Below, one piece after another: positions 8,109 to 57,905 of a stretch of 64,000 nucleotides of DNA. The notes beneath the pieces are model-generated. The model was not told the origin of the DNA. It saw only the letters and a list, made by a program, of their open reading frames with translations, and did no database searches. The DNA is from Patescibacteria group bacterium (GTDB taxonomy: Bacteria; Patescibacteriota; Microgenomatia; 0-14-0-10-38-17), in assembly GCA_050953885.1 (NCBI GenBank), contig JBMNNJ010000001.1, positions 271,437 to 335,436 of the forward strand, in the 5' to 3' direction. The number at the start of each line of letters is the position of its first letter. The stretch's first letter is position 1. The translations under genes were made by a program, and so were the position numbers.

Positions 8109-8738
8109 TCATTCTCCCTCAAACCGGCGGATAACCCCGGTTACCCTTCCTTTAATTTGCACATTACGGACAAAAATTGGTTTATAAGCGCGATTGGCCG
8201 GTTCAAGCTTTACCCGTGTTTTTTGCCTAAAAAAGCGCTTAATTGTCGCCATGCCATCGTCCAAAACCGCCACCACAATGTCGCCATCACGGGCTTCATT
8301 CTGCTCCTCCACCACCACAAAATCGCCGTCTAAAATTCCCTCATCAATCATCGAATTGCCTTTCACCTGAAGCACAAAAGTTCGTTTCCGGCCGGAGGCA
8401 AAAGAAGCGGGAATACTGGTGGTGGCATTGGGGTCAGGATAGGCCTCAATGGGGGCGCCGGCGGCAACAAAGCCTAAAATCGGCACTTCTACTTGATTAT
8501 CAAAAGGCACGCTCATTAAATCTTTATCCAAAATTTCAATTCCCCGCACCTTGCCCTGATAACGCCGCAAAACTCCTTTTTCCTCCAAGCGCCCTAAATG
8601 TTCATGGACGGTGGCCAGCGAGGAAACACCAATAGCTTCGGCAATCTGTTGCAGGGTAGGGGAGTGGCCAAACTTTTGGATATACTGGTTAATAAAATCC
8701 AAAATCTGGCGCTGACGTTTATATAAAGTTACCGGCAT
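8109..8738 (-). CDS. lexA: LexA repressor
   Basis: N-terminal wHTH (LTKRQRQILDFI...PTLQQIAEAIG). C-terminal S24 peptidase with the AG cleavage site (VAAGAP) and the Ser/Lys catalytic region (GNSM...). The start was chosen at the internal ATG 8736-8738; the ORF track extends to a TTG at 8774. Confidence 0.85.
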   Translation of the reverse strand: MPVTLYKRQRQILDFINQYIQKFGHSPTLQQIAEAIGVSSLATVHEHLGRLEEKGVLRRYQGKVRGIEILDKDLMSVPFDNQVEVPILGFVAAGAPIEAYPDPNATTSIPASFASGRKRTFVLQVKGNSMIDEGILDGDFVVVEEQNEARDGDIVVAVLDDGMATIKRFFRQKTRVKLEPANRAYKPIFVRNVQIKGRVTGVIRRFEGE

Positions 8739-8967
8739 TAAAATCATGCTACCAAAGAAAACCCAAAAAGTCAAGAGAAAAAACCGGCGAATTGCTTATT
8801 TTTCTACCCAAAAAATATCTAAATATCTAATCGTTTATTAAAACTTTCCCCGCTTTCAAAAACTAAATTGCTATGTAGTAATTTAGTCGGGCGGGCAATT
8901 TGTTAAGCAAATATTTTAAGGAAAAAGCTGTTAAAATCAATTAAGAAAACGGCTTCGTCTTGTTTGG

Positions 8968-13034: not shown

Positions 13035-15041
13035 TTATTTCGCTTCTATCTCCCTTATCTTTTCCCGTAATTTGATCGCCATCTCAAAATCCAAGGCATC
13101 GGCGGCTTTTTTCATTTCTCGCCGTAAATCGGCGGCTAATTTCCGCCGTTCGTTTGGCAATAGCGATTTTACTTCTCGCAACCGGCGGTTTAGGGCTTCT
13201 TCTTTTTTCTCCTCTTCTTCACCCACAATCAATTTTGATCGCACCGGTTTTTTGATCGAGTGGGGGGTAATCCCATGACGACGGTTATAATCTTCTTGAA
13301 TCGCCCGCCGGCGGTTCACCTCCGCCACCGCCCCCTTAATTGAACCGGTCAGCGTATCGGCGTAAAGAATCACCCGGCCTTCTTCATGACGCGCCGCCCG
13401 ACCCATAATTTGGATTAAGGAGGTTTTACTGCGCAGAAATCCTTCTTTATCGGCGTCCAAAATCGCCACCAAGGAAACCTCCGGCAAGTCAAGACCTTCC
13501 CGCAAAAGATTAATCCCCACCAAAACGTCCACTTCTCCCAAACGTAAATTATCCAAAACATCGCTTCGCTTTAAGGTCTCAATTTCCGAATGAAGATAGG
13601 CCACGCGCAAGTTTTCCTTTTTTAAAAAATCCGTTAAATCCTCGGCCAGCCTTTTGGTGAGAGTTAAAACCAAAACCCGCTGGTTTTTTGCCACTCTTTT
13701 TTTAATCTCGCCAATTAAATCCTGAACTTGATTGGCGGTGGGGCGAATAATTACTTCCGGGTCCAAAAGGCCGGTGGGGCGAATCAATTGTTCCACCACC
13801 TGACCACCATCTTTTGCCCTTGATAATTCCCAATCGGCTGGAGTGGCGCTCACATAGATTGTTTGCGGGGTGCGCCTTAAAAACTCTTCAAAACGAAGAG
13901 GCCGGTTGTCAAAAGCCGCGGGCAAGCGAAAACCAAAATCCACTAAGGTTTTTTTGCGCTCATAATCGCCCCGATACATCCCCCGAATTTGGGGAACACT
14001 CATATGCGATTCGTCAATAAAAAAAAGCCAATCCTGACCATAGGCCTCTTTGAAATAATCAAGGAGAGTATAGGGCGGTTCGCCCGGGGCGCGATTGTCA
14101 AAATAACGGGAATAATTTTCAATGCCGTTAACATAACCGACACGCTTAATCATTTCCAAATCATAGTTAACTCTTTCGGCAATTCTTTGCGCCTCAATAA
14201 AACGCTTTTTTTCTTTAAAAAATTTTACCCGCTCCTCCAAATCCTTCCTAATTTGGCGAAAAATTTCCTCGTCGTTTTTGCCCGCCAAATAATGGCGCGC
14301 GGGAGGAATCTTTACCTCTTCATTGTATTGAAGAGATAAGTCTTTAATTCTTTTCCCCGTTAGCGGGTCAATACATTCTATTGTATCAATGACTTCATTA
14401 GGCTGTATTAGGCGGATTAAGTAGTCGCCGGAGGAGGGGAAAATATCAAGATTTTCTCCCCGCACCCGAAAGCCGGCCCGGCGAAGCTCGTAATCCTGCC
14501 TTTGGTAACCAATTTCCACCAGCTGGCGCAAAATCTCCTCGCGGGGTAGCTGGTCGCCCTTTCTTAAGGTAAGAATATGGCGACGAAAAACTTGGGGAGA
14601 ACCAAGGTTGTAAAGACAAGAAACCGAAGCCACCACTAAAACATCGCTTCTGGTTAAAATATTATTGGTTGCCTCAAGGCGCAGTTTGTCGATTAGCTCG
14701 TTGATTTCCGTTTCCTTGGCAATATAAGTGTTGGTGGTCGGCACATAAGCCTCCGGCTGGTAATAATCGTAATAGGAAACAAAGTAGGAAACGGCATTTT
14801 TGGGGAAAAAATCGCGAAACTCCTGATAAAGCTGGCCGGCTAAAGTTTTATTATGGGAAATAACCAGCGTTGGCCGGCCAACCGCCTCAACCACCGAAGC
14901 CATGGTAAAGGTTTTACCCGAACCGGTGGTGCCCAAAAGCACTTGCTCTTTCATTCCTCCCCTAACTCCCTCAATCAACTTTTTAATTGCTTCGGGCTGG
15001 TCGCCGGTGGGGGAGAAAGGAGCCTGAAGTTTAAATTTCAT
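13035..15041 (-). CDS. uvrB: Excinuclease ABC subunit B
   Basis: N-terminus FKLQAPFSPTGDQPEAI, helicase motifs, and the C-terminal UVR domain (ALDFEMAIKLREKIREIE). Confidence 0.95.
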   Translation of the reverse strand: MKFKLQAPFSPTGDQPEAIKKLIEGVRGGMKEQVLLGTTGSGKTFTMASVVEAVGRPTLVISHNKTLAGQLYQEFRDFFPKNAVSYFVSYYDYYQPEAYVPTTNTYIAKETEINELIDKLRLEATNNILTRSDVLVVASVSCLYNLGSPQVFRRHILTLRKGDQLPREEILRQLVEIGYQRQDYELRRAGFRVRGENLDIFPSSGDYLIRLIQPNEVIDTIECIDPLTGKRIKDLSLQYNEEVKIPPARHYLAGKNDEEIFRQIRKDLEERVKFFKEKKRFIEAQRIAERVNYDLEMIKRVGYVNGIENYSRYFDNRAPGEPPYTLLDYFKEAYGQDWLFFIDESHMSVPQIRGMYRGDYERKKTLVDFGFRLPAAFDNRPLRFEEFLRRTPQTIYVSATPADWELSRAKDGGQVVEQLIRPTGLLDPEVIIRPTANQVQDLIGEIKKRVAKNQRVLVLTLTKRLAEDLTDFLKKENLRVAYLHSEIETLKRSDVLDNLRLGEVDVLVGINLLREGLDLPEVSLVAILDADKEGFLRSKTSLIQIMGRAARHEEGRVILYADTLTGSIKGAVAEVNRRRAIQEDYNRRHGITPHSIKKPVRSKLIVGEEEEKKEEALNRRLREVKSLLPNERRKLAADLRREMKKAADALDFEMAIKLREKIREIEAK

Positions 15042-17416: not shown

Positions 17417-20323
17417 ATGGAAGAAATTATTATTCGCGGCGCGCGCCAGCATAATCTCAAAAATATTGATGTTGCCATTCCCAAAAACAAGCTGGTGGTT
17501 TTAACCGGCCTTTCCGGCTCCGGTAAATCATCACTTGCCTTTGACACCCTTTATGCCGAAGGCCAACGCCGCTATGTGGAATCGCTTTCCACCTACGCCC
17601 GCCAGTTTTTGGGAATCATGAACAAGCCGGATGTGGACGCCATTGAAGGCTTATCGCCGGCCATTGCCATTGACCAAAAAAGCGTCTCCCAAAATCCTCG
17701 TTCCACCGTGGGCACGGTAACCGAAATTTATGATTACCTGCGCCTGCTTTTCGCCCGCATCGGTCATCCCCACTGCCCAAAATGCGGCCGGGAAATAAGC
17801 CGCCAGTCGCCGGAGGAAATTTTAAATCTTGCCAAAGCTTTAATTCGGGAAAAAGTGGGCCAGAAAGGGGTGGCCCGGCTTTTCATCCTTTCGCCTTTAG
17901 TTTCCGGCAAAAAAGGCGAGCTTGCCGGTCTTTTTGAAAACCTTATTAAAAAAGGCTTCAGCTTTATTCGCCTTGACCGCCAATTTTTCCGCCTTGACGA
18001 GGATTTTACGATTTTAAAAAACAACCGCCACACCATTGAGGCGGTGGTGGATCGCCTTTCTTTTGAAAAAAAAGACCTGAAAAACGAAAAAAGCCCCCAG
18101 TGGCAGCGTTTGGCCGAAGCGATTAACAGCGCTCTCACTCTTTCCAATGGCGAGGTAATTTTAATGGAGGCCAATGACGCAAGCTTTGAAATGCCCGACC
18201 GGCCCAAAGAAACCATTGACCATCTTTTCTCCGAGCTTTTTGCCTGTCCGGTTTGCGGCCTTTCCCTGCCCGAGGTGGAACCGCGCACCTTTTCTTTCAA
18301 TTCTCCCTTTGGCGCCTGCCCCACCTGCAACGGTCTTGGTGCCCTTTTGCGATTTGATCCCAAATTGGTTTTGAATCTTAACTTATCCGTTTCCGAAGGG
18401 GGCATTATGCCCTTGGGGAAAATTTACTATCAGGACAACTGGTATGCGCGCATTTTTAAAAAATTTGCCGAAGAAGAAAAAATTGACCTGCGCCGGCCTT
18501 TAAAAGAACTGCCAAAAGAAGATCTTAAGAAAATTCTTGAAGGCACAGGTGAAAAAATTTACCGCGTTTCCGGCACTAATCGTTTTGGGGAAGAAACCAC
18601 CATCCGGGAAAAATTCCCGGGCATTCTCGCAGAACTTAAGCGCCGCTACGAAGAAACCGATTCCGACTTTATCCGTCAGGCCTTGGAAAAATTCATGAAC
18701 TACCAACTTTGCCCCACTTGTCACGGCACCCGGCTTAAAGCTGAAGCCTTAGCGGTAACCATTTTAGGGAAAAATATCTATCAGGCAAGCCAGCTTAATG
18801 TTGAGCAATTGCTTTCCTGGCTTGATAATTTTCCCGTTTCCTCCCGCGAGCAAATTATTGCCGCCCCCATTTTGAAAGAAATCAAAAGCCGCCTTACTTT
18901 TCTTAAAGCCGTCGGCCTTGATTATTTAACGCAAAACCGCCTCTCCGGAAGCCTTGCCGGCGGTGAAGCCCAACGAATTCGGCTTGCCTCCCAAATCGGC
19001 ACCGGTTTAACCGGCGTTTTGTATGTTTTAGACGAACCCACCATTGGCCTTCACCCCCGCGACGGCCAAAGGCTAATTGACACCCTCAAAAACCTGCGCG
19101 ATTTGGGCAACTCGGTGGTGGTGGTGGAGCATGACCGCCAAACCATCGAAAGCGCCGATTATGTTCTCGACTTTGGCCCGGGAGCAGGGAAAAATGGCGG
19201 CCGGGTGATTGCCCAAGGAACACCAATGGAGATTAAAAATAATCCCCAGTCGGTCACCGGCCCCTACCTTGCCAACAAAAAGAAAATTAAAATTCTTGAA
19301 AACGCAAGTGCCGGCCAGAATAGGGGAGCGATCAAACTTCAGAGCTGTTCGCAATATAATCTTAAAAATATTGACGTTTCCTTTCCTTTGGGAAAATTTA
19401 TCGGCGTTACCGGCGTTTCCGGCTCGGGAAAATCAACACTGGTAACGGAAACGCTTTATCCGGCTCTTGCCAAGTCCTTGGGATACGCCTTAAAAAGAGA
19501 GCCGGGACAATTTACCAACCTTGAGGGCGCGGATAAAATCCGCCGTGTTTATTTAATTGACCAGTCGCCCATTGGCCGCACTCCCCGCTCCAATCCGGCC
19601 ACCTATATCAGTGTTTTCACCGACATCCGCCAGCTCTTCGCCTCGCTGCCGGAGGCAAAAATCCGCGGCCTAAAACCCGGCCATTTTTCTTTTAATGTTC
19701 GCGGCGGCCGCTGTGAAGCCTGCCAAGGCTTTGGAGAAATAAAAATCGAGATGCAATTCTTATCGGATATTTTTGTTAAATGCGAAGTTTGCGGGGGTCA
19801 GCGTTACAACAGCGACACCCTGGAAATCCGCTATAAGGAAAAAAACATCGCCGAAGTTTTATCCCTGACGGTGGAAGAGGCGCTTTCTTTTTTCCAAAAT
19901 ATCCCCCCCATTGCCCATAAACTACAAACCTTGATGGATGTTGGCTTGGGTTATCTTCAGCTTGGTCAGCCGGCGCCCAATCTTTCCGGCGGCGAGGCGC
20001 AAAGAATTAAAATTGCCCATGAGCTGGTTAAAAAAGGGTCAGGCCAAACCTTTTACATTTTAGATGAGCCCACCACCGGCTTGCATTTTGCCGACTTGGA
20101 AAAATTAATTAAAGTTTTGCGCCAGCTGGTTAACGAAGGAAACACGGTGGTGGTTATTGAACACAATTTAGATCTAATTAAAAATTGCGACTGGGTTATT
20201 GACTTGGGACCCGAGGGGGGAGAGCGGGGCGGGGAAATTATTGCCCAGGGCTCACCGGCGGAAATTGCCCAAAACCCCCGCTCCTATACTGGAAAATATC
20301 TTAAAGAATTGCTAAACTTCTAA
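17417..20323 (+). CDS. uvrA: Excinuclease ABC subunit A
   Basis: Two ABC ATPase modules ([28 protein letters not shown]; [11 protein letters not shown]). Zinc-finger cysteines CPKCGR, CPVCG, CEAC are present. The length is 968 aa. Confidence 0.95.
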
Positions 20324-22459: not shown

Positions 22460-23755
22460 ATGCAACCAAAAATTTTTTCGCTGTCTTCCCATCCTCTAAA
22501 AAAAATCCCCTCAAAACCCGGGGTTTATCTTTTTTTAAACCAAGAGGGAAAACCTCTTTATGTCGGTAAGGCGGCTAATCTTAAAAATCGCCTTGGCGCT
22601 TATTTGGGGGAAAAAACGCTCTTGGACAAAAAAACCCGCCTGCTGGTTTTGGAAGCCAAAAAGCTTAAGATTATTATTCTCCCCTCCGAATTCGAAGCCT
22701 TGCTTTTGGAGGCTAATTTAATTAAACAATTTCAGCCCCCTTATAACACCAAGCTCAAAGACGACAAGCGCTATCTTTACATTAAAATCACCCGCGAAAA
22801 GTATCCGCAGGTGGGGGTGGCGCGCCGCCAAACCCCCCATGCCGAGCTTTTTGGCCCTTATCCTTCGGCCAAAACAGTCCGGTTTCTTTTGCGGGAAATC
22901 CGTCGCATTTTTCCCTATCGCTCCTGCCGAATTTTACCTAAAAAACCATGCCTTTATTACCAGATTAATCTTTGCCCCGCCCCGTGCGTTAATCAGGATA
23001 AAAAGTCAACCCTTGCTTATCGCCGACAAATTAGCCAAATTAAAAAACTGCTCGAAGGCAAAAGCGGGCGTTTAATTAAAGAATATGACCAAAAAATGCG
23101 CCGGGAAGCAAAAAAAGAAAATTTTGAAAAAGCCGCCCAATTTAAAGAAATTAAAGAAAAATTAATCTGGTTAACAGAGAAAAGAACGGCACCGGAAATA
23201 TGGCTGGAGGAAATTTTCCCCGAAGAAACCGCCTCCCAACGCCTCCAGGCGCTTTACGAAATTTTAAAAAATTATTATCCCAAGTTGAGCCCGCCCTTAA
23301 AACGAATTGAGGCCTATGACATTGCCAACCTCGCCGGCGGTGAAGCCACCGGCTCAATGGTGGTTTTCAAAAACGGTCAGCCCGACCCTGCCTCTTATCG
23401 TCAATTTAAAATCAAAACTAAAGATAAGCCCGATGACCCGGCAATGATGAAAGAGGTTATCAGCCGCCGACTTAATAATCCCCAATGGCCCCGCCCTGAT
23501 TTTATTTTGGTTGACGGCGGCAAGGGGCAGGTGAGCGCCGCTCTTAAAGCCTTAGAAGAAAAGAAACAAAATATCCCCGTGGCGGGTTTGGCCAAAAGAG
23601 AAGAGGAAATTGTTATTAAAGAAAAAGACCATTACCGGATTTTAAAAATCGACCCCGACTCGCCGGCCTTATTGCTTCTGCGCCAAACCCGCGACGAAGC
23701 GCATCGCTTCGCCCAACGCTACCATCATTGGCTGCGGACCAAAAAGCTGGTATAA
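22460..23755 (+). CDS. uvrC: Excinuclease ABC subunit C (short form lacking C-terminal HhH)
   Basis: GIY-YIG nuclease at the N-terminus (GVYLFLNQEGKPLYVGKAANLKNRL). A UVR motif is present. An RNase H-like endonuclease domain (ILVDGGKGQV) is present. The protein is 431 aa and ends without the HhH pair. Confidence 0.85.
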   Translation: MQPKIFSLSSHPLKKIPSKPGVYLFLNQEGKPLYVGKAANLKNRLGAYLGEKTLLDKKTRLLVLEAKKLKIIILPSEFEALLLEANLIKQFQPPYNTKLKDDKRYLYIKITREKYPQVGVARRQTPHAELFGPYPSAKTVRFLLREIRRIFPYRSCRILPKKPCLYYQINLCPAPCVNQDKKSTLAYRRQISQIKKLLEGKSGRLIKEYDQKMRREAKKENFEKAAQFKEIKEKLIWLTEKRTAPEIWLEEIFPEETASQRLQALYEILKNYYPKLSPPLKRIEAYDIANLAGGEATGSMVVFKNGQPDPASYRQFKIKTKDKPDDPAMMKEVISRRLNNPQWPRPDFILVDGGKGQVSAALKALEEKKQNIPVAGLAKREEEIVIKEKDHYRILKIDPDSPALLLLRQTRDEAHRFAQRYHHWLRTKKLV

Positions 23756-25379: not shown

Positions 25380-25591
25380 GATAAAACACGAATAGACGCG
25401 AATAAGAAACGAATAAACACGAATGAGCGAATGATTGGCAAGACAAGCTCGCGATAACGGTCACTATCATCCTGAACTTGATTCAGGATCAAAACAGATT
25501 CTGACTTTCGTCAGAATGACAGATTCCTTACCTATTACGTGTTACGCATTACGCATTAATATCTTAATATCTTAGTATCTTTTGAAAACAG

Positions 25592-25975: not shown

Positions 25976-26238
25976 CAGATTAAATTGTATGTTGTATTGA
26001 ATATAAAAAGCTGACATTGCCGTATTGTTTAAACTGACAAATCCGCCAGCTGGCGGAAAAAATTAAAACCTAAATCAAAGCGGGAATTTGTAGGGGTCGA
26101 CCCATGTGTCGACCCGATTAATGGTTTTAAATAGGCAAGCGCGGATTCTTTGAAGGGCGGACACATAGGTCCGCCCCTACAATTCGCGTCGATTCGTGTT
26201 TTAACAGTTTAGCAATGTCTCTTAATATCTTAGCCTAG

Positions 26239-26336: not shown

Positions 26337-26408
26337 GCGAGGGTAGTTCAGTGGTAGAACGTCTCGTTGCCAACGAGAAGGCCGCGGGTTCAAGTCCCGT
26401 CCCTCGCT
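26337..26408 (+). tRNA. tRNA-Gly(GCC)
   Basis: Acceptor GCGAGGG/CCCTCGC. Anticodon loop TTGCCAA. Discriminator U. Confidence 0.85.
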
Positions 26409-26425
26409 CATTTTTCCGCTTTTTT

Positions 26426-26496
26426 TGCCCGGTCGTCTAACGGTAGGACAACAGACTTTGGATCTGTCTATCCAGGTTCGAATCCTGGCTGGGCAA
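26426..26496 (+). tRNA. tRNA-Gln(TTG)
   Basis: U1-A72 acceptor TGCCCGG/CTGGGCA. Anticodon loop CTTTGGA. T-arm CCAGG-TTCGAAT-CCTGG. Confidence 0.8.
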
Positions 26497-26520
26497 CTAG
26501 CACGGGCACCCAGGATAACC

Positions 26521-26651
26521 GAGAGAAATACATCTTCTAAGTGTCCCAGGTTCACGCCTGGCATATTTTTACTCTTTGGTAATAAAATACGACTAATATA
26601 CTCCAGGTGTCAAGTTAAGACACTTTCCAGGTGTACACACAGGTGTACAAC
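26521..26651 (+). repeat. About-130-bp direct repeat, copy A (CAGGTG-rich; left boundary of islet, immediately 3' of tRNA-Gln)
   Basis: Aligns over about 130 bp with 29629-29763 and 30864-30982, all in the same orientation. Shared blocks include CCAGGTGTCCCAGGTTCACACCTGG and CCAGGTGTCAAGTTAAGACAC. Confidence 0.85.
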
Positions 26652-26765
26652 ATTTTCATACAATTGCAAAAATTGAAGCGGGGGGCAACGCCTAGCCCTA
26701 CAATTGAAACGGTTAAAAAAATCGCTGACGCATTAGGTATTAGTATTGATAATTTATTCAAATAA
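26619..26765 (+). pseudogene. 5'-truncated XRE-family HTH regulator remnant
   Basis: The reading frame ...LQKLKRGATPSPTIETVKKIADALGISIDNLFK* matches the C-terminal half of an XRE HTH domain (E.G.R.PSLETL.KIA.ALGVS.D.LF). There is no start codon. The frame runs back into repeat A and hits a TAA. No reading frame of the repeat encodes an N-terminal HTH half. Confidence 0.45.
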
Positions 26766-26771
26766 CTAAAT

Positions 26772-29549
26772 ATGAATTTACTTCAGACACTTTGTTCATA
26801 TTGGTATGAATGTATAAAAAATGAAGATGTCTTAGAAAAAGATATTCCTATTAACGTGCGCTCAAAAGCAATTTTATACCCTTTTGATGATGACCCTTTT
26901 GTATTCAAAAAGAAAGATGTCTCCGTTAAGATTGAAAATGAAAAATTAAATACCTTCGCAACTACAAAAACCGAAGGATTAGAGTTTTATTATGGGTATC
27001 CACTTCTTTATTATCGAGACGATAAGACTGATAGACAATTAGTCGCTCCTTTATTTATTATCAAGGTTAAATTTAATCGCGACGGTAGAGATTTGTTTCT
27101 GTCTAAAGACGAGCAATATCCGGTTTGCGGAATTCAAGCTCTAAGCAAATTAGGATTAAGAACAGAAGAAACAGCCAATATAAACCAATCCATAGAAAAA
27201 TTATTTGTTGGTAACCCTAAAATAGATGAACAGCAACTTTGCAATGAGGCGCTAAAAATTATCGAGAAAGAGGCAGGAATTTCAATTATCGAGGAAATAA
27301 ATCCACTAAAACTATCCAACTCAAAAAAACTTACGAGAGAAATGTCGGCGGGCTTGTATAACAAAAGTTTAATTTTTGCCGGAGAAACTACAGTTTTTAA
27401 TATTCACCTGATAAAAGATTTGTTAGAGCTTAAAAGCAGAACTGATCTGGAGAAAACATCTCTATCGTTCTTTTCTGCTCCTCGTTCTGCCGATGTTCAA
27501 AATGAAGTAATACCGATACTTCCTTTTCCCTCAAACGAATATCAAATAACGGCAATTCAAGATATTTTTAGGCATTCGTTAAGCGTAATAACTGGCCCCC
27601 CAGGAACGGGAAAAAGTCAATTTATATCAAACCTGATTGTCAATCTTTTTCTAGCCGGCAAAACGGTTTTGTTTGTCAGCCATACGGGAGAAGCCGTTGA
27701 TGTTGTGAACTCAAGGATAAGTGAACAATTTCGAAATCTGATGTTACGAACTGGGAAAAAAGAACTTCGTCAAGATTTGAAAGGTAGGTTTAATGAGATA
27801 ATCGCAGATTCTTCAAAAAGAAATAATAAAAATATCTCTGCAGATTATATTTATTCTCTTTGGAAAACAATTCTGGAATACAGAGACAGCTTACTGAAAA
27901 AAGATGAAGCCGAAAAAGATTTTCAACAGAAGTTTTTTTACCAAAAGGAATTAAAAAATGTTCTTCAAATTCAAGATTCTATTGTAAAAAAACTAAAAAT
28001 ATACTTTCAGCTTTTTATCCTTAATTTTAAATTACAAAGAATAAAATCAAGATTGTTAAAATTACCCAGCCGTGTAAATTTTGAATCTAAAATAAGAGAA
28101 TTAGAAAAAGAATATTATCTTTCCTGTCAAGATTTTGTTCGAAATGTTTACTTAGAAAAAATGCTTGGTAATGGCAGCAAGATTAGTCTGGTTAATGCTT
28201 TTCTTAATCAGGTCAATAGTCATCGATTCAACGATGAAGATATAAGTGAGTCATCATTTATTAACGCTTTGCAGGTTCTTAAAATTTGGTCATCTACCCT
28301 AAAATCACTTAGGGGTACTTTTCCACTTAAAGCTAATATTTTCGACTACGTTATTTTTGACGAGGCTTCTCAAATTGATTTGCCGTCTACGGCCCCTGCC
28401 TTATATAGGGCCAAAAAAGCGATTATTGTGGGCGACCCAATGCAATTAACCCATATTGCGGGCATTACAAAGGATGTCGATTATGGATTAGCAAAAATAC
28501 ACGGCCTAACGGAAATGGGAGATATTTATCCTTCAAAAACAAGATATTGCGATGTTTCTTTATATAAAGCGGCTGAAAATTATTTGCCCCATTCATCAAT
28601 ATTTTTAACCAATCACTACCGCCCCGAAGACCAAATTATTTCCCTTTGTAACCAAGTGTTTTATGGAAATCGCTTAAAAATATTAAGCACGCTGGACTAT
28701 GGTAAGTTTCCTTCCGGATTACCCTTAGGCGTACAGTGGGAAGATATAAGAGGGGAAGTATATAAGCACCCTTCGGGAAGTCGCATCAATCAACGGGAAG
28801 TAGATGAGGTTAACAGAATTTTTCAAAAAGTGATAAAGGAAATTTCCGGGACTGATTTGACTGTTGGCGTGGTTACGCCTTACTCAAAGCAAAGGCAAGC
28901 AATATATGAAAAAATATCATCTATAACACCGGTAGAGGTTTTGGAAAAACACGATGTGAAAATACTGACAGCTCATCAATTTCAAGGTTCTGAAAAAGAT
29001 ATTGTCATTTTTTCGTTAGTGTTGACCTCTAAGGGAAATGGAAACAGCGACACATGGTATAACATTTACCGGCAAATATTAAATGTCGCCCTTTCTCGGG
29101 CAAGGTATCTTTTATACATCATTGGTGATAAGGATTTTTGTGAAAACAGGAAGGGTATTTTAGGCAAGATAAAAAGTGTTTATGAAAAAATCAAAGACGA
29201 AGAGAAATTAGAAGAGTATGACCTCCACGCAAAATTTGATACCCCAACCGAGAAGATATTTTTTGAACAATTACAGAAAGTCAAGTTAGATAAGTTTGGT
29301 TATAAATTGATACCAAAGTTAGTGGTAAAAAGATACACGCTAGATTTTGCAATCGTTGGTAAGAAAAAAATTAATGTTGAGATAGACGGCATACAACACG
29401 AAATAATCAAAGGTATGCCAGTTTTAGAAGATGTTGAACGAGATGAATTTCTGAAAAATGAAAATTGGGAAATTTTACGATTTCCTAATTACATGGTATT
29501 ATCTGAAATGCCAAAAGTCATTGATGAATTGTTGACTAAATTAAAATAG
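26772..29549 (+). CDS. SF1 (Upf1/DNA2-like) helicase fused to C-terminal DUF559 (Vsr-fold PD-(D/E)xK-like) endonuclease domain; N-terminal about 250 aa of unknown function
   Basis: Walker A ITGPPGTGKSQF. Motif II VIFDEASQ. VGDPMQL (AAA_12-type). NHYRP. QFQGSEKDIVIF. LNVALSRARYLLYIIG. The C-terminal 110 aa, YTLDFAIVGKKKINVEIDGIQHE...DVERDEFLKNENWEILRF, match the DUF559 consensus. Confidence 0.85.
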   Translation: MNLLQTLCSYWYECIKNEDVLEKDIPINVRSKAILYPFDDDPFVFKKKDVSVKIENEKLNTFATTKTEGLEFYYGYPLLYYRDDKTDRQLVAPLFIIKVKFNRDGRDLFLSKDEQYPVCGIQALSKLGLRTEETANINQSIEKLFVGNPKIDEQQLCNEALKIIEKEAGISIIEEINPLKLSNSKKLTREMSAGLYNKSLIFAGETTVFNIHLIKDLLELKSRTDLEKTSLSFFSAPRSADVQNEVIPILPFPSNEYQITAIQDIFRHSLSVITGPPGTGKSQFISNLIVNLFLAGKTVLFVSHTGEAVDVVNSRISEQFRNLMLRTGKKELRQDLKGRFNEIIADSSKRNNKNISADYIYSLWKTILEYRDSLLKKDEAEKDFQQKFFYQKELKNVLQIQDSIVKKLKIYFQLFILNFKLQRIKSRLLKLPSRVNFESKIRELEKEYYLSCQDFVRNVYLEKMLGNGSKISLVNAFLNQVNSHRFNDEDISESSFINALQVLKIWSSTLKSLRGTFPLKANIFDYVIFDEASQIDLPSTAPALYRAKKAIIVGDPMQLTHIAGITKDVDYGLAKIHGLTEMGDIYPSKTRYCDVSLYKAAENYLPHSSIFLTNHYRPEDQIISLCNQVFYGNRLKILSTLDYGKFPSGLPLGVQWEDIRGEVYKHPSGSRINQREVDEVNRIFQKVIKEISGTDLTVGVVTPYSKQRQAIYEKISSITPVEVLEKHDVKILTAHQFQGSEKDIVIFSLVLTSKGNGNSDTWYNIYRQILNVALSRARYLLYIIGDKDFCENRKGILGKIKSVYEKIKDEEKLEEYDLHAKFDTPTEKIFFEQLQKVKLDKFGYKLIPKLVVKRYTLDFAIVGKKKINVEIDGIQHEIIKGMPVLEDVERDEFLKNENWEILRFPNYMVLSEMPKVIDELLTKLK

Positions 29550-29628
29550 GTGGCGTAGCAATCAATCGGGATTTTGTTTAAAAAAGGTTCGCACTTCGTT
29601 CAGTAATTGTGGCTGATTCAGATTTTGT

Positions 29629-29763
29629 GAAGAAATACACCTTCTAGGTGTCCCGGGTTCACACCTGGCATATTTTTACTCTTTGGGCAATAAAACACGA
29701 CTAAAACATACTCCAGGTGTCAAGTTAAGACACTTGCCAGGTGTACAATACCAGGTGTACAAC
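29629..29763 (+). repeat. About-130-bp direct repeat, copy B (internal to islet)
   Basis: See copy A. A TGTATAAT -10-like element follows at about 29781-29788. Confidence 0.85.
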
Positions 29764-29860
29764 ACAATATAATTCAGGTGTATAATATTGTTGTACCCAA
29801 AACTTTGAGTAATTCGAATATATCGAATTATTAAACTGCATTATAAAAGGAGGTGAAAAA

Positions 29861-30196
29861 ATGTTTAAAAATCTTTTAGATTATTCATATAAAAGAAGTT
29901 TTAAAGAAGCAATTGGTTTTTATATTTCTTACCTCGTTTTGACTTTAATATTGGCAGTATTATTAACGAGTGTTTTAGGGCCAACTAGCGGTCAAGAAAA
30001 TTTTGATTTTGGTTATAGAGTTTGGAATCTTGTTGCTATTATAGTAACAGTTACCCTTTCTTTCCTTATTTTAAAAAAGAAAGAATTTTTAGGAAATTTT
30101 TTCTATTTTATATTGGCTCTTTTATCAGGAGTCTTATCATATTTTGGTGGCGGCTTGTTGGGCTTGATCCCCGTAGCTTTTCTTTCTACAAGATAA
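29861..30196 (+). CDS. Small integral membrane protein (3 predicted TM helices), hypothetical
   Basis: A canonical strong Shine-Dalgarno AAAGGAGGTG sits 7 nt before the ATG, which is rare in this window. The 111-aa protein is hydrophobic. Confidence 0.5.
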   Translation: MFKNLLDYSYKRSFKEAIGFYISYLVLTLILAVLLTSVLGPTSGQENFDFGYRVWNLVAIIVTVTLSFLILKKKEFLGNFFYFILALLSGVLSYFGGGLLGLIPVAFLSTR

Positions 30197-30233
30197 GCAA
30201 AACTTAAACAGCCTTGGGGAGAAAAATAAAAAA

Positions 30234-30671
30234 TTAATAAGATAAGGACTTGCCGTTGCGGGTGAGAAATTCAAAAAGCATTTTTGGGGTGAAAATTTTC
30301 TTAGGCTTGATAAAAGCGGCCACTTTTTGAGTCAAAAAATGTTTTTTGTCTAAAGTAATTAAAAACTCGCATGGAGCCATCTTTGCCTCAGTAAGAATGA
30401 CAGCATCCTTTTTAACAATTACTTTCCTAGCTTTCTGAATCAGTTTTTGATCTAGCTTTTGGTCGATAATTTCAAGTTTACTCACCAAAAGAAAAAATCT
30501 TTTTAAGTGATAGTTCTCTAATTTTTTACGGATATTCCTTTCGACTTCTGTTAAAACTAATTTTGAAGCAACCAACTTAATTTGTCTCAAGGTAAAAAGT
30601 TTTGATGAGCCACCCGTAGGAGAATTAACGGCCATAAACAAAACGCTTGAATCTAAAAATGCCCTTTTCAT
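30234..30671 (-). CDS. PIN-domain ribonuclease (VapC-like toxin)
   Basis: N-terminal AFLDSSVL (the first PIN acidic residue). Later ILTEAKMAPCEFLITLDKKHF carries the conserved D. The 145-aa protein lies 2 nt downstream of the antitoxin-like ORF. Confidence 0.7.
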   Translation of the reverse strand: MKRAFLDSSVLFMAVNSPTGGSSKLFTLRQIKLVASKLVLTEVERNIRKKLENYHLKRFFLLVSKLEIIDQKLDQKLIQKARKVIVKKDAVILTEAKMAPCEFLITLDKKHFLTQKVAAFIKPKKIFTPKMLFEFLTRNGKSLSY

Positions 30672-30673
30672 CC

Positions 30674-30874
30674 TTAAAGTTTATCTTCTTTTTCCCGCTC
30701 ATTAATTTCCTTCTCAGTAAATTCTCGAGTGAAAGGCAAAAGTTGAGGATCAATAAAAGCCTTTTGATAAATCCTGGCGACTTCCTTTTCGAGTTTAGCC
30801 AAATACTCAACATCCACCAAAACAGCTTCAGGTTTGCCGTTGCGAGTAAAGAAATTGACGGTTGAGAAATACAC
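30674..30874 (-). CDS. Phd/YefM-like antitoxin, apparently N-terminally truncated (GTG start at edge of repeat C)
   Basis: TRNGKPEAVLVDVEYLAKLEKE matches the RGKPVAVLVS.EEYE core of Phd/YefM. Only about 10 residues precede it instead of about 30. The upstream frame runs into repeat C and stops. Confidence 0.5.
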   Translation of the reverse strand: MYFSTVNFFTRNGKPEAVLVDVEYLAKLEKEVARIYQKAFIDPQLLPFTREFTEKEINEREKEDKL

Positions 30875-30982
30875 CTTCCAGGTGTCCCAGGTTCACACCT
30901 GGCATATTTTTCCTCTTTGGTGATAAAACACGACTAAAATATACTCCAGGTGTCAAGCTAAGATACTTTCCAGGTGTACAAA
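30864..30982 (+). repeat. About-130-bp direct repeat, copy C (right boundary of islet)
   Basis: See copy A. Confidence 0.85.
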
Positions 30983-31016
30983 TCCACTGAGAATAAAAAA
31001 ATTAATTGCGATCTTA

Positions 31017-31769
31017 CTAAATCTCTATCCCTATCGGACAATGATCCGAACCTTTAATTTGGTTTAAAATAAAGGCGTTTTTCAACTTGATCGCCAACTT
31101 TTGGGTAACAAAAACATAATCAATCCGCCAGCCCAAATTACGCGCCCGGGCGTTGGCATAATAGGGCCACCAAGTATAAGCATCCTTTTTTTTCGGATAA
31201 AATTTTCTAAAACTATCAATAAAACCGTTGCCGACTAGCTGGTTAATTCTGGCCCGCTCTTCGGGGGTAAACATAATGTTATTTTTATTTTCTTTTGGCC
31301 GGGCTAAATCAATTTCCTCATGGGCAATATTAAAATCACCCGTCAGGATAACTTTCTTTTCTTTAAGCTTTTGAAGATAATTTAAAAGATAGTCATAGAC
31401 CGCCAATTTATAGGCTAATTTTTCTTTTTGGCGGCCGCCATGAGGAAGATAAAGGTTAATCAGGCTAAACTGGGGATAGTCCAGTTTTAAAAATCTCCCC
31501 TCGTCGTCAAATTCTTTAAACCCTACCTTTTCCTCCCATGATAAAGGCTTTTGCCGGGAATAAACGGCCGTGCCGGCATATCCTTTTTTCTTCGCCGAGT
31601 TAAAATAAGAATAATAGCCTTTGAGGGAAACCAGCTCGGGGTCCAGTTGCTCTTTTGAGGCTTTTATTTCCTGAAGGCAGAGAATATCGACCCCCATTTG
31701 GTCAATTTTTAGGGCGCCTTTTTGGTAAACCGAGCGCAAGCCGTTAACATTCCAGGAAATGATTTTCAT
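31017..31769 (-). CDS. xth: Exodeoxyribonuclease III (AP endonuclease, EEP family)
   Basis: MKIISWNVNGLRS, the LQEIK motif, and the C-terminal SDHCPI motif. Confidence 0.9.
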   Translation of the reverse strand: MKIISWNVNGLRSVYQKGALKIDQMGVDILCLQEIKASKEQLDPELVSLKGYYSYFNSAKKKGYAGTAVYSRQKPLSWEEKVGFKEFDDEGRFLKLDYPQFSLINLYLPHGGRQKEKLAYKLAVYDYLLNYLQKLKEKKVILTGDFNIAHEEIDLARPKENKNNIMFTPEERARINQLVGNGFIDSFRKFYPKKKDAYTWWPYYANARARNLGWRIDYVFVTQKLAIKLKNAFILNQIKGSDHCPIGIEI

Positions 31770-32035: not shown

Positions 32036-32377
32036 ATGACTTTTAAAAATAAAGTTTACAAACTCGTTAAGAAAATTCCCCGCGGCAAAGTGGCCACTTA
32101 TGGCCAAATCGCCAAGCTGGCCGGCAAACCGGGGGCGGCTCGGGCGGTGGGGGTTTTGTTGAAAAATAACCCCTACATTGGCGTTCCCTGCCATCGGGTG
32201 GTTGGCGCCAAGAGAGAATTAGTTGGCTATTCAAGAGGAGAGGGAATTAAGAGCAAAAAACAAATTCTTAAAAACGAGGGGGTCTTTTTTAAAGGGGGTA
32301 GGGTAGACTTAGAAAAATCGGGCTGGAAACCAAAAAAAATGGAGGAGCGAACTTTCCGCCCGAGGAAAAACAGGTAG
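32036..32377 (+). CDS. MGMT-family protein (Ogt C-terminal DNA-binding/alkyl-acceptor domain only, active-site PCHRV retained)
   Basis: ATYGQIAKLAGKPGAARAVG...PCHRVV is the O6-alkylguanine alkyltransferase HTH and active-site cysteine. Confidence 0.75.
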   Translation: MTFKNKVYKLVKKIPRGKVATYGQIAKLAGKPGAARAVGVLLKNNPYIGVPCHRVVGAKRELVGYSRGEGIKSKKQILKNEGVFFKGGRVDLEKSGWKPKKMEERTFRPRKNR

Positions 32378-32538: not shown

Positions 32539-32609
32539 GCGGGATTAGTTGATCGGCTCAACGTCAGCTTTCCAAGCTGAAGAGACGGGTTCGACCCCCG
32601 TATCCCGCT
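32539..32609 (+). tRNA. tRNA-Trp(CCA)
   Basis: Acceptor GCGGGAT/ATCCCGC. Anticodon loop TTCCAAG. The D-arm is atypical. The 3' end overlaps the stop codon of the downstream minus-strand gene by 1 nt. Confidence 0.65.
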
Positions 32610-33937
32610 CATTTTTCTTCTAAAACCTGCGCGACCGCTTCAATCAGGGGAGGGTAGGGGAGATAACGATAAAGTTGGTCTTGCCAGTCGGCTTGGCTAA
32701 TGTCCACCACCGGTTCCACTCCATTGCTTTCAATCGGCTGGCCATCATCGCGAAGCGTAAGGCTGTGAACCAAAAATACCGAATATTTTTCTTTTTCGTC
32801 AATCTGTGTTTCTAAAGGAAAAACCTTCTCAATTGTTCCCCAACCGCGCGTTTTTTCTCCTACCAAAATCCCCACATTATATTTTTTTAAAGCCGCCGCC
32901 ATAATTTCCGCCGATGACTGGGTTTGGCCATCAACCAAAATAACCACTTTCTTATAGCGCACTAAAGACGGCAGCCAGCCTACCCGTGTTTGATAATCAA
33001 TCGTTTGCCCCTGATGAAGAAATTGATAAGCATAATTATTCTGCCCGATAAAAGGCCCCAAGAGGTAAGGAAGAACATCCACCGACCCGCCGATATTCCC
33101 CCGTAAATCCAAAATCAGGCTATCAAGCACCTCTCCCTGATCCACTTTTTTGGTAACCCGTTCCAGCTCGGCAAAAGTGGTGGGAGAAATTTTTTCAATC
33201 TGGATATAAAAAACTTCCGGCGTTAAAAGCCGATAGGAAAGAGTCGGCTCCACCCCATAAGTGTCATAAAGCTGACGGCTTTCCTCGTCCCTCAAAACCT
33301 CAAAAGCGTTTTGAATTTGAGCTAATTTTTGGGCGGCTTCCGCTGACGCCTCCACTTGAGGAGAAAGTTGGGCCACTTTCTCCTGATAGACTTTTTTTAT
33401 CTCCTCGGAAGAGGCGTCTTTTTCTACCTCTAAAACCGCATACTGATCCACACTTGGATCGCGATTTTCCACCTTGTCTCTTAATTCCGTTTCTTCTTTT
33501 TGGCTATAAAGACGGCTACGGCCAAAGGGCTCCAAATTGGCCAAAACAATATCTGCCGTTTGTGTTGCCAATTGCTTTTTCTTTTCCTCATCGTCAATCT
33601 GCTCAATAATTTTGCCCATCATTTCCAAAAGCGCCTCTTTATTTTTCTCTTTTAAAGCTTGGGGCTGACCGGTTAATTTTTCCGTGGCCAAAATAAAAAG
33701 AGAGGTAAGCTCTTCGTCGCTTAAGGCCTTCCAGTAATTTTCCTTAATTTTTCCGTAAATTTCGTCAATAAAGGAAACATAAACATTTTGCGTTGCCGAA
33801 TTAACGGCCGGGGAAGGGGATAACCGACCATAATTTTTGAAAATTAAAAAAGCCCCGCAAGAAGCTCCCAGCAAAAAAATTAAGGAAAAAAGGAGTGCTC
33901 GCCAAATTTTCTGGTTTTTCTCCGTCTTGATTTTCAT
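32609..33937 (-). CDS. S41 family C-terminal processing peptidase, membrane anchored, with internal J-like (DnaJ N-terminal-like) domain
   Basis: The C-terminal half has S41 motifs (LILDLRGNIGG, catalytic Ser/Lys region). Residues about 153-217, DQYAVLEVEKDASSEEIKKVYQEKVAQLSPQ...AFEVLRDEESRQLYDTYG, align to the J domain but lack HPD. Confidence 0.75.
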   Translation of the reverse strand: MKIKTEKNQKIWRALLFSLIFLLGASCGAFLIFKNYGRLSPSPAVNSATQNVYVSFIDEIYGKIKENYWKALSDEELTSLFILATEKLTGQPQALKEKNKEALLEMMGKIIEQIDDEEKKKQLATQTADIVLANLEPFGRSRLYSQKEETELRDKVENRDPSVDQYAVLEVEKDASSEEIKKVYQEKVAQLSPQVEASAEAAQKLAQIQNAFEVLRDEESRQLYDTYGVEPTLSYRLLTPEVFYIQIEKISPTTFAELERVTKKVDQGEVLDSLILDLRGNIGGSVDVLPYLLGPFIGQNNYAYQFLHQGQTIDYQTRVGWLPSLVRYKKVVILVDGQTQSSAEIMAAALKKYNVGILVGEKTRGWGTIEKVFPLETQIDEKEKYSVFLVHSLTLRDDGQPIESNGVEPVVDISQADWQDQLYRYLPYPPLIEAVAQVLEEK

Positions 33938-51200: not shown

Positions 51201-51213
51201 GGGGGTGAAAAGA

Positions 51214-51708
51214 ATGGCCAGTCGCTCGTTAAACAAAGTCATGCTCATCGGCAATTTAACCCGTGACCCTGAATTGCGCTATACGCCGCAGGGAACGGCC
51301 GTTTGCACCCTTGGTTTGGCCACCAATTATTCTTGGACCACCGAACAGGGTGAAAAAAAAGAAAGCGTCGAATTTCATCGTTTAGTGGCTTGGAATAAAT
51401 TAGCCGAAATTTGTTCCCAATTGCTTTTTAAAGGGAGAAAAATATATGTGGAGGGGAGGCTGCAAACCCGACAATGGGAAGGTCAGGACGGCGCCAGCCG
51501 GCAAACCACAGAAATCGTTATCACTGACATGATTATCTTAGATTCCCGTCGGGAGCAGGAAGAAGGAGGAGAAACCACCGCCGGTGAAGAAAAAACGCCA
51601 ACGGTAATCCCGGAAGAAACTGCCCCAAAAGAAGACGCTAAAGAAAAAGAAAGCAAGGAAAAAAATCCGCCCGAGGAAGAAGTTAAAGCGGAGGATATTC
51701 CTTTCTAA
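51214..51708 (+). CDS. ssb: Single-stranded DNA-binding protein
   Basis: OB-fold NKVMLIGNLTRDPELRYTPQGTAV. The acidic tail ends in DIPF. ATG 51214 is preceded by AGGGGGTG. Confidence 0.9.
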   Translation: MASRSLNKVMLIGNLTRDPELRYTPQGTAVCTLGLATNYSWTTEQGEKKESVEFHRLVAWNKLAEICSQLLFKGRKIYVEGRLQTRQWEGQDGASRQTTEIVITDMIILDSRREQEEGGETTAGEEKTPTVIPEETAPKEDAKEKESKEKNPPEEEVKAEDIPF

Positions 51709-56812: not shown

Positions 56813-57433
56813 CCTATGAATTATTGCTATCTTGTAAGACACGGAGAAAAGAATAGCACTAAAGGCGATCCTTCTTTATCTGTTTTAGGCAAAAACCAAG
56901 CCCAATTAACCGCAAATTATTTAAAAAAATTTCCTATTACGAGGATTTATACTAGTCCTCTTAAAAGATGTTGGGAAACGGCGGAAATAATTGCCAAAAC
57001 TCTTAAATTATCATTTGATATTGAAGAAGATCTTCGGGAGAGAATTAACTGGGGTGATGATCCAAATTTATCTTTTGAGGAATTTTTGAAATTATGGGAA
57101 AAAACAAGTATCAATCGGGATTGGAAACCACAATTTGGAGATTCCTCAAAAAATGCAGGTAAAAGATTAGAACAAGTGATCAAAGAGTTTTCTAAAAATA
57201 ACGCGCATACTGTTTTCGTGACTAGTGGGGGGATTATTACCGATTTTTTAAGAAATGTCTTTTCGGAGAATTATTTAAGAAAATTTAAATCCGATTTCCC
57301 GGAGAAACGCGAAAAGTATATTAAGGAGTGTTCGATTACCGTAGTTAGAGAAACAAACAGCAATTTTGAGTTAATCAAACTCGCTTCAGACGATCACCTT
57401 TCTTTTCCAACAGAATCGCTTTTAAATAACTAA
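56813..57433 (+). CDS. Histidine phosphatase family protein (phosphoglycerate-mutase-like)
   Basis: The LVRHGE catalytic RHG motif sits at the N-terminus. The start is at ATG 56813. Confidence 0.75.
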   Translation, partial: PMNYCYLVRHGEKNSTKGDPSLSVLGKNQAQLTANYLKKFPITRIYTSPLKRCWETAEIIAKTLKLSFDIEEDLRERINWGDDPNLSFEEFLKLWEKTSINRDWKPQFGDSSKNAGKRLEQVIKEFSKNNAHTVFVTSGGIITDFLRNVFSENYLRKFKSDFPEKREKYIKECSITVVRETNSNFELIKLASDDHLSFPTESLLNN

Positions 57434-57905
57434 TTACACCTTAGCTAATTACACCTTAGAGGTGGTTACTATTTGCACCTCTGGTAAAAATAATTACACC
57501 TTAGAGGTGGGTTGTCCCGCCATAGCGGGATCCGCCTTTGGCGGTCCGCTCGGGACGGATCCCGCCACGGCGGGACTATTTGCACCTCTGGTAAAAATGT
57601 AATTACACCTTAGAGGTGGGTTTCTATTTGCACCTCTGGTAAAAATGAACTTCTTAAGGTCAAAAATTTTGCTTCTTCTATTGATGAGTATCTGGGAAAA
57701 AAGAAGGAATGCCGCAAAAGCACTTAGCTTATACAGGGGATAATCCTTATCGTTTTAAGATTATTTCTTCGTACTTAATTAAGAACAGACAAAAAAATTA
57801 ACGTCATCTATCCAAAAATTGAGGAAAAATTATTAATTGCCAAAGGATAATCAATAAAAAGAGTAGGGGAGGCGCTAAACTAACAGGCGCCAGCTTATCA
57901 AGCCC

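Follow-up and report, generated by a model that had tools for sequence, protein, structure and literature searches.

Direct copies of a palindromic repeat flank foreign gene modules at a tRNA-Gln-linked island in a Patescibacteria genome

The genomes of Patescibacteria, also known as the Candidate Phyla Radiation (CPR), are tiny and are thought to be poor in mobile elements, and gene acquisition in these bacteria is poorly understood. We analyzed a 64 kb stretch of DNA (hereafter, the window; positions 271,437 to 335,436 of contig JBMNNJ010000001.1, assembly GCA_050953885.1) out of a ~0.6 Mb metagenome-assembled genome of the Patescibacteria group. Here we describe an island within this window in which foreign modules are spliced between copies of a palindromic repeat at a tRNA-linked hotspot, with the junctions resolved at near-base precision. 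The island starts at a tRNA-Gln gene, at the 3' end of which the homology with a related species stops. Repeat copy A begins 27 bp further on and is followed by a truncated helix-turn-helix (HTH) gene and a helicase gene (module 1), copy B, a small membrane protein gene together with a Phd-PIN toxin-antitoxin pair (module 2), and copy C, which ends 30 bp from the stop codon of xth, the core gene that closes the island. For this xth, the best relatives come from the Microgenomates group of Patescibacteria and do not exceed 65% identity. The G+C content of the modules is 32-34%, compared to 42% for the genome.

The original prediction for this locus, made from the bare sequence, described ~130-bp direct repeats in three copies. 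All three were located; they are 125-135 bp long, lie in direct orientation and are 92-93% identical to one another in the core. The window contains the word CCAGGTGT 10 times, always within copies A-C, against an expectation of 0.56, and this total was reached in none of 100 shuffles of the window; a covariance model derived from the copies likewise retrieved only these three sites. At least six independent assemblies (JGI, ENA, Logan) show the same arrangement with 99.8-100% identity, so that it is not an assembly artefact.

Each copy of the repeat is one long imperfect palindrome, both ends of which carry the same word (core AGGTGTA) in inverted orientation. These terminal words, GAAATACACCYT on the left and CAGGTGTAYAACA on the right, are 12-13 bp long and come in one to three tandem units each, the number of which varies among copies and among strains (the last right-end word of copy A occupies 26640-26652). 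Inner inverted words, CCAGGTGT and ACACCTGG, surround a 41-44 bp A/T-rich loop, and the inverted pair and the hairpin that had been noted earlier were both recovered, as CCAGGTGT-N9-ACACCTGG and GTGTC-N7-GACAC, respectively. The arms are inverted copies of each other (core TACACCT/AGGTGTA) with the exception of the outermost four to six bases, which are unlike (GAAA... on the left, ...CAACAC(A) on the right). The box TGTATAAT, previously proposed as a -10-like element downstream of copy B, is indeed present (29779-29786) but falls inside the degenerate third right-end word of that copy.

The whole unit is predicted to fold as a single 33-pair imperfect hairpin with internal loops and bulges, in which the predicted stems are TACACCT/AGGTGTA, AGGTGTC/GACACTT, ACACCTGG/CCAGGTGT and ATATTTT/AAAATAT. 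The folding energy is -32 to -43 kcal/mol for RNA (z -2.6 to -4.2), for both strands, as follows by construction from the palindrome, and -17 to -22 kcal/mol for single-stranded DNA, where local hairpins compete. In an alignment of nine copies, 98.9% of the cells are in standard pairs and six of the eight variable stem pairs stay paired on the + strand thanks to G.U, a proportion that is not significant (binomial p ~0.15); compensatory double changes in the stem were not found across the nine copies. The open frames of the repeat match no real protein, and the unit encodes no transposase. When its open frame was used as a query in protein space, one search gave no match and the other returned the known kinase-repeat fusion and two unrelated satellite-like proteins.

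The edges of the repeat cut genes. To the right of copy A, the HTH' frame covers only positions 26-53 of the 55 positions of Pfam HTH_3, whereas intact HTH_3 genes, encoding 64 and 84 amino acids, are located upstream of the orthologous helicase in two other loci (L098 and L099), so that the short frame is not the natural form of this gene. The breakpoint of the HTH homology coincides exactly with the edge of copy A (26652|26653). Thus, the prediction that this gene lacks its N-terminal half holds, but the accompanying claim that it lacks a start codon is not strictly correct, because two GTG codons (26631 and 26643) are in frame inside the repeat and available as starts. The downstream helicase has homologs in Bacteroidota with 87-89% protein identity, and module 1 aligns with Thermoflavifilum (Bacteroidota) and two metagenome loci at 86% DNA identity over 2.9 kb. 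This homology extends from 26653, the first base beyond copy A, to 29555, and in a third locus the 3' flank homology of the helicase module reaches within ~10 bp of the left edge of copy B (29632). Judging from these alignments, module 1 is a single contiguous foreign fragment that was cut in the middle of the HTH gene and fits exactly between two repeat edges. For the gene itself, the closeness to Thermoflavifilum thermophilum (89% protein identity for the helicase; 86% DNA identity across 26653-29555) and to other metagenome loci points to a recent inter-phylum transfer of a Mokosh-like helicase-nuclease gene.

The second truncation is at the left edge of copy C. The antitoxin Phd' consists of 66 amino acids, compared to 90-95 amino acids in its intact homologs, which carry PF02604; hence this protein is not naturally short either, and the 24 missing N-terminal residues are close to the ~25 that had been predicted. 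In another locus (L095), an intact Phd gene lies next to its PIN partner, and the DNA identity to the window is 94.7% from the middle of Phd through the PIN stop codon. Recognizable Phd sequence extends to 30853-30862, that is, the homology breakpoint and the edge of copy C (30866) agree within 12 bp. The edge had been placed at the GTG start of the gene, and this GTG (30874) and the first three codons indeed consist of repeat sequence. Given that the toxin-antitoxin pair is 94.7% identical at the DNA level to an intact pair elsewhere and the helicase shows 89% protein and 86% DNA identity to Bacteroidota, the cargo of the island is foreign.

Table 1. Features of the island and its boundaries in the window
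Feature	Positions	Strand	Remarks
tRNA-Gln(ttg)	26426-26497	+	last of a cluster of 7 tRNA genes; left boundary of the variable island
Repeat copy A	26525-26652	+	left word GAAATACATC at 26525; right words CCAGGTGTACACA and CAGGTGTACAACA, the last one ending at 26652
HTH' open reading frame	26631-26768	+	C-terminal half of an XRE/HTH_3 gene (HTH-derived from 26653 on), joined to an in-frame GTG that lies in the repeat
Module 1	26653-29631	+	contiguous foreign segment, from mid-HTH to ~75 bp beyond the helicase stop; G+C 34%
Helicase, 925 aa	26772-29549	+	superfamily 1 (SF1) helicase (Upf1/Mokosh-like, AAA_11/AAA_12) with a C-terminal DUF559 endonuclease domain
Repeat copy B	29632-29787	+	core 29632-29766, plus degenerate third right-end word TTCAGGTGTATAATA at 29773-29787
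Small membrane protein, 111 aa	29861-30196	+	no family match; first gene to the right of copy B
PIN-domain toxin	30234-30671	-	intact; 94.7% DNA identity to the PIN of the intact Phd-PIN pair in L095
Phd' antitoxin, 66 aa	30674-30874	-	24 residues missing from the N-terminus, along with the native promoter; GTG and first 3 codons lie in the repeat
Repeat copy C	30866-30986	+	right end cut inside the second right-end word (CCA|CTGAG); last word absent
xth (exonuclease III family)	31017-31769	-	core gene; right boundary of the island; co-directional with Phd'-PIN

An exact-word pattern retrieved six JGI metagenome contigs, one of which represents the window genome; the other five, together with three further sequences (L100-L102), belong to the homologous tRNA-Gln island of a related species, with 82-86% identity to the window in the tRNA region. 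Thus, the search for the repeat in other contexts, which the original prediction had proposed, recovered it next to the same tRNA gene with different cargo. This parallel island contains three copies as well (a, b and c), in the same orientation as in the window, so that all six repeat contexts in the two species lie after tRNA-Gln in one orientation; the cargo is wholly different. To the left of copy a, there are IS1595 fragments, a NUDIX-nucleotidyltransferase gene and a kinase-like gene the 3' part of which is cut by the left edge of the copy; at the right edge of copy a lies a transposase reduced to its HTH domains, without the DDE domain. An intact IS1595 and a gene for a DsbD-like membrane protein precede copy b, GNAT and radical-SAM genes occupy the interval from b to c, and a probable 5'-truncated CapA-like gene (with weak Pfam support) abuts copy c at its right edge, followed by an rve-type transposase. 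Across the six contexts, at least 5 of the 12 edges cut genes, in both the 5' and the 3' sense (HTH', Phd', the 3'-cut kinase-like gene, the HTH-only transposase and the weakly supported, 5'-cut CapA-like gene), and the missing half of a gene was never found on the opposite side of the repeat copy. Elsewhere in the related island, an AdoHcyase-like gene is split into overlapping open reading frames of 243 and 184 amino acids (L005, 4916-6125, minus strand) and is probably a frameshifted pseudogene.

Between the two species, the repeat copies are 93-96% identical, above the 82-86% of the flanking region; within the related species, copies a, b and c are 98-99% identical to one another. The divergence is star-like: each window copy differs from a consensus resembling copy a of L001 by 4-7 independent mismatches. 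Further copies were not detected in GTDB genomes by a scan that, like those of the metagenomes, used exact words and would let relatives diverged by more than ~10% escape, nor in viral contigs or in plasmid and phage collections. None of the 37 related loci contains a copy, and none of the 80 xth loci retrieved from other species contains repeat words or a match to the covariance model.

Variation among strains affects the same repeat. In one variant (L011), the entire B-C module (module 2) is absent and a single hybrid repeat, B-like in its left part and C-like in its right part, remains. The switch point lies inside a 22 bp block, GGTTCACACCTGGCATATTTTT, the longest one that is identical in B and C; L011 has a 3-bp deletion within this block. 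In the related species, the two variants L001 and L005 agree to the left and to the right of copy a and differ only at the left edge of the copy: 51 bp of the kinase-like gene (L001, 239-289) give way, in L005 and in L100-L102, to an additional left-end word unit of 21-30 bp. This difference could be an adjacent deletion accompanied by an end duplication. Copy b of L006 differs from that of L004 by an internal 15-bp duplication and one right-end word. The parallel array with other cargo and the strain that lost a module suggest a real, and possibly still active, mechanism of gain and loss.

These observations support the view that the repeat arose at these sites through insertion or recombination and is not just a promoter, as originally proposed, given the low-G+C foreign modules, the array in the related species, the hybrid in L011 and the breakpoints matched to the repeat edges. 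The target-site duplications that the prediction suggested looking for were not found: in no copy are the two ends adjoined by a direct repeat of at least 5 bp. Therefore, simple insertion of the repeat into the HTH and Phd genes did not happen. A 6-mer, ACCAAG, that occurs to the left of copy a in L001 and to the right of copy c was considered as a duplication flanking the whole array and rejected because the right flank is the C-terminus of the CapA-like gene in another frame and not the continuation of the kinase-like gene.

We tentatively favor, with a probability somewhat below one half (about 0.45), the interpretation that the repeat is a low-copy, non-autonomous palindromic element, the copies of which serve as joints for the gain and loss of modules. 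Behind this interpretation stand repeat ends that match homology breakpoints, foreign cargo, a single orientation, one locus in two species, and a module-loss variant with a hybrid repeat; for all steps that go beyond the mapping of junctions, we infer a scheme that involves a trans-acting enzyme, circular intermediates and promoter activity. Most likely, the end words are bound by a transposase or recombinase that acts in trans and has no gene in the vicinity. The ends of the repeat would have become joined to arbitrary DNA, often within genes, and the copies would then act as portable joints. A unit of one repeat and its cargo would integrate at a resident copy through recombination inside the repeat and would exit by the reverse reaction, yielding a head-to-tail array at a single locus adjacent to tRNA-Gln, without target-site duplications. 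After capture, the 5'-truncated operons HTH'-helicase and Phd'-PIN would be expressed from the start codons inside the repeat, with transcription provided either by the promoter-like sequences of the loop or by read-through from the tRNA operon, for HTH'-helicase, and from xth, for Phd'-PIN, the latter being possible because xth is co-directional with this pair.

Several facts weigh against the non-autonomous element. No integrase, recombinase or transposase was found among the window proteins scanned with Pfam (46 of the 48 non-nested open reading frames of at least 110 codons, including all those of at least 141). The terminal inverted repeats are imperfect, with differing outermost tips (TTTC vs CAACAC), and the absence of target-site duplications counts here as well. 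Only three copies per genome are seen, with none outside the island in the 64 kb window or in the metagenome, genome, viral, plasmid and phage searches, whereas a true family of miniature inverted-repeat transposable elements (MITEs) or REPINs is normally dispersed. For the loss of the module in L011, homologous recombination suffices since the crossover falls in the longest block of B/C identity (22 bp). Finally, the interpretation does not account for the origin of the first junctions between repeat and cargo.

An alternative that we consider unlikely is that the repeats are recombination sites similar to integron attC or to res, with the segments between them being cassettes moved by a recombinase that is encoded elsewhere in the genome and acts on the folded or duplex repeat. 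Such sites would produce what is seen in the two species, namely a direct array with a fixed place in the chromosome, in which the repeat is conserved and the cargo varies; in size and in its imperfect hairpin with internal loops and bulges, the repeat is similar to the attC sites of sedentary chromosomal integrons, which measure 120-130 bp (PMC5027507), one of the modules is a toxin-antitoxin cassette, and the crossover of the cassette-loss variant falls inside the repeat, at an inner word. The retention of pairing on the + strand by G.U in 6 of the 8 variable stem pairs also speaks for this alternative, but this bias is not significant and is not accompanied by compensatory double changes. 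Moreover, a regular-expression search of both strands of the six copies with their flanks found no R-box core (GTTRRRY or RYYYAAC, as defined in PMC5027507), and the scanned reading frames on either side of the array (26 kb on the left, 33 kb on the right) include no integrase. The modules are not cassette-like, being multi-gene, with genes on both strands and genes cut at the edges, and the L011 junction, with its 3-bp deletion in the longest identity block, fits homologous recombination.

We find it similarly doubtful that the repeat is mainly a portable bidirectional promoter/operator cassette that recombination copied upstream of imported operons, in place of their autoregulated promoters, with the nine AGGTGT-type heptads, in both orientations, being putative operators of one regulator. 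At 7 of the 12 edges, the adjacent genes point away from the repeat (HTH'-helicase, the gene for the membrane protein, Phd'-PIN, GNAT, the DsbD-like gene, radical-SAM and CapA'), and in both truncations in the window an autorepressor lost its DNA-binding part together with the native promoter, but the effector genes were spared. In the repeat loop, TTGACA-N18-TATTTT faces leftward (10 of 12 matches in copy A), and a weaker TTGGTR-N15-18-TATACT, read directly off the sequence, faces rightward. However, promoter-like matches in the region are no more common than in shuffled sequence (13 vs 14.8), and the spacing is worst (20-22 bp) in copy C, where the need is greatest. In the related species, copy a lies between converging 3'-truncated genes, with nothing to drive, and read-through from the tRNA operon and xth could provide transcription in the window. 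Regulation alone does not account for the joining of defined ends to positions in the middle of genes. A promoter or operator role could coexist with mobility.

The reappearance of the hairpin word TACACCTT-NN-AGGTG in a second cluster of short repeats (57430-57650, plus strand) would also suit an operator function. This cluster consists of 2.5 units of approximately CTATTTGCACCTCTGGTAAAAATRWAATTACACCTTAGAGGTGGGTT, with a GC-rich palindromic insert at 57513-57568, and shares the word with the left end of the repeat; the word has 5 matches in the window compared to 0.01 expected, all on the + strand. The cluster may bind the same protein as the island repeat, or a related one.

It is very improbable that we are dealing with a gene for a structured non-coding RNA, or with an RNA element acting in cis (a stabilizer, processing site or terminator hairpin), that is repeated by chance: despite the strong predicted hairpin, the nearly complete pairing across nine copies with mostly G.U-compatible one-sided changes on the + strand and a small terminator-like stem followed by a T-run, a search of 26400-31100 against Rfam 15 gave only tRNAs at gathering score and nothing credible at E up to 10, the folding on both strands is given by the palindrome, there are no compensatory changes, and the edge truncations, the variable number of terminal words and the restriction to a single island are left unaccounted for.

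Other identities were considered and rejected. The repeat is not the end of a neighboring insertion sequence (IS), given that it has no inverted partner near the rve-type or IS1595-type transposases in two loci of the related species (L003 and L005); the inverted repeats of IS1595 (GGGTAATTGATG...) are unrelated to it, and the two rve-type transposases of these loci are only 22% identical to each other. A diversity-generating retroelement with template and variable repeats (TR/VR) can be dismissed because a reverse transcriptase is absent, the repeats do not encode protein and the changes are ordinary transitions, not adenine-specific ones. A CRISPR-like or tandem array is ruled out by the 1.2-4.4 kb spacing and the gene content, and a known non-coding RNA by the lack of an Rfam match. 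The words are not LexA boxes: lexA is located at 8109-8774, and AGGTGTA words are absent from its upstream region. The loop sequence AATACGACT (e.g., 26584-26600, and copy b in L004) equals positions -16 to -8 of the T7 promoter and, together with the AA(A)TATA that follows it, resembles the core of the T7 RNA polymerase promoter, TAATACGACTCACTATA. Since the spacing to TATA varies by 1-3 nt among copies and no single-subunit RNA polymerase is present, a T7-type promoter was rejected and the resemblance is probably a coincidence.

The surroundings of the island have features of their own. The window contains an unusually large number of DNA-repair genes, namely lexA (8109-8774, minus strand), uvrB (13035-15041, minus strand), uvrA (17417-20323), uvrC (22460-23755), xth (31017-31769, minus strand), ogt (32036-32377) and ssb (51205-51708); directly upstream of uvrA there is a toxin-antitoxin pair of the BrnT/CopG type (according to the annotation of L224). 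In the tRNA cluster, a GC-rich inverted repeat of 28 nt (26088-26182; 82% complementary, 39 nt spacer) lies between tRNA-Phe and tRNA-Leu, and a 22 nt inverted pair (25382-25403 and 26182-26203) encloses four tRNA genes. About 1.6 kb from the island, the 3' side of tRNA-Gly (32539-32610) is a second tRNA-linked variable site: in one strain (L014, 1-888), the sequence past this tRNA is wholly unlike the window from ~32610 on. Another repeat family, with units of ~100 bp (GGATGACTTTACCGTCATCCTGAA...), is common to the window genome (11570-11693 and 25467-25521) and the island of the related species (L003, 3059-3354).

If a dedicated enzyme recognizes the AGGTGTA words, the locus would represent a compact new recombination system. 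If there is no such enzyme, it is a clear case of a short repeat organizing a mosaic island, and would also show how 5'-truncated operons stay expressed, such as a toxin with an antitoxin that has lost its DNA-binding domain. A bolder proposal, which we regard as distinctly unlikely, is that of a new gene-capture platform of the CPR, in which a ~130 bp hairpin site with AGGTGTA arrays would function like attC, with an unlinked novel recombinase acting on it, and foreign fragments (defense, toxin-antitoxin and IS genes) would be stockpiled next to tRNA-Gln under a shared control region, as an analog of integrons without sequence kinship.

Among known systems, the tandem accretion of integrative islands at tRNA genes is similar with respect to the position next to a tRNA 3' end and to the modules being set apart by direct repeats; unlike in those islands, the repeats contain no tRNA sequence, copy A begins 27 bp past the tRNA, and the modules have no integrase.

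The ERIC and Correia-type palindromic MITEs have an anatomy comparable to that of the island repeat. The REPINs and bacterial interspersed mosaic elements (BIMEs) that are mobilized by RAYT transposases (PMC3116915, PMC3337134) share with it a non-coding unit of ~100-150 bp composed of two inverted arms and a spacer, a single long predicted hairpin and a star-like divergence of the copies. In contrast to the tens to hundreds of intergenic copies that are dispersed in both orientations in the case of REPINs and MITEs, the island has three copies at one locus in one orientation, abutting truncated genes and lacking target-site duplications; a RAYT (an IS200/IS605-like Y1 transposase) is absent among the scanned frames of the window. 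Because the repeat is not dispersed and lacks target-site duplications, it is not a typical MITE or REPIN (PMC3116915).

The attC arrays of sedentary chromosomal integrons, such as the Vibrio VCRs (PMC5027507, PMC5371416), are likewise formed by species-typical direct repeats of ~120-130 bp with an imperfect hairpin, separated by variable, horizontally acquired segments that include a toxin-antitoxin module and differ in content among relatives. The repeat fits the description of an integron hairpin (~57-141 nt, with unpaired features, in direct orientation), with its 33-pair hairpin and 6 of 6 contexts direct. The array differs in having no adjoining attI or, among the Pfam-scanned frames, IntI, and in its multi-gene segments on both strands, the boundaries of which cut genes. 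With neither an R-box nor IntI, the repeat is not an attC site.

The arrays and translocatable units of IS26 (PMC4196232) are similar to the island in having head-to-tail copies of one repeat between unrelated cargo segments, genes cut at the repeat edges, internal junctions without target-site duplications, loss of a module along with one repeat copy, and growth at an existing copy, not at new sites. IS26 itself, at 820 bp, encodes Tnp26, unlike the 125-135 bp unit described here, which has no transposase and therefore is not an IS; no IS6-family gene was seen among the scanned frames of the window. The translocatable units of IS26 become integrated at a resident copy and exit when this reaction runs in reverse (PMC4196232), and integron cassettes behave comparably although the chemistry is different (PMC5027507). 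By analogy, we infer that an IS26-like mechanism may operate at the island. The analogy with IS26 and with integrons is one of behavior, not of family membership: the element fits no described family among those tested, and its behavior is a variant of known repeat-mediated module capture.

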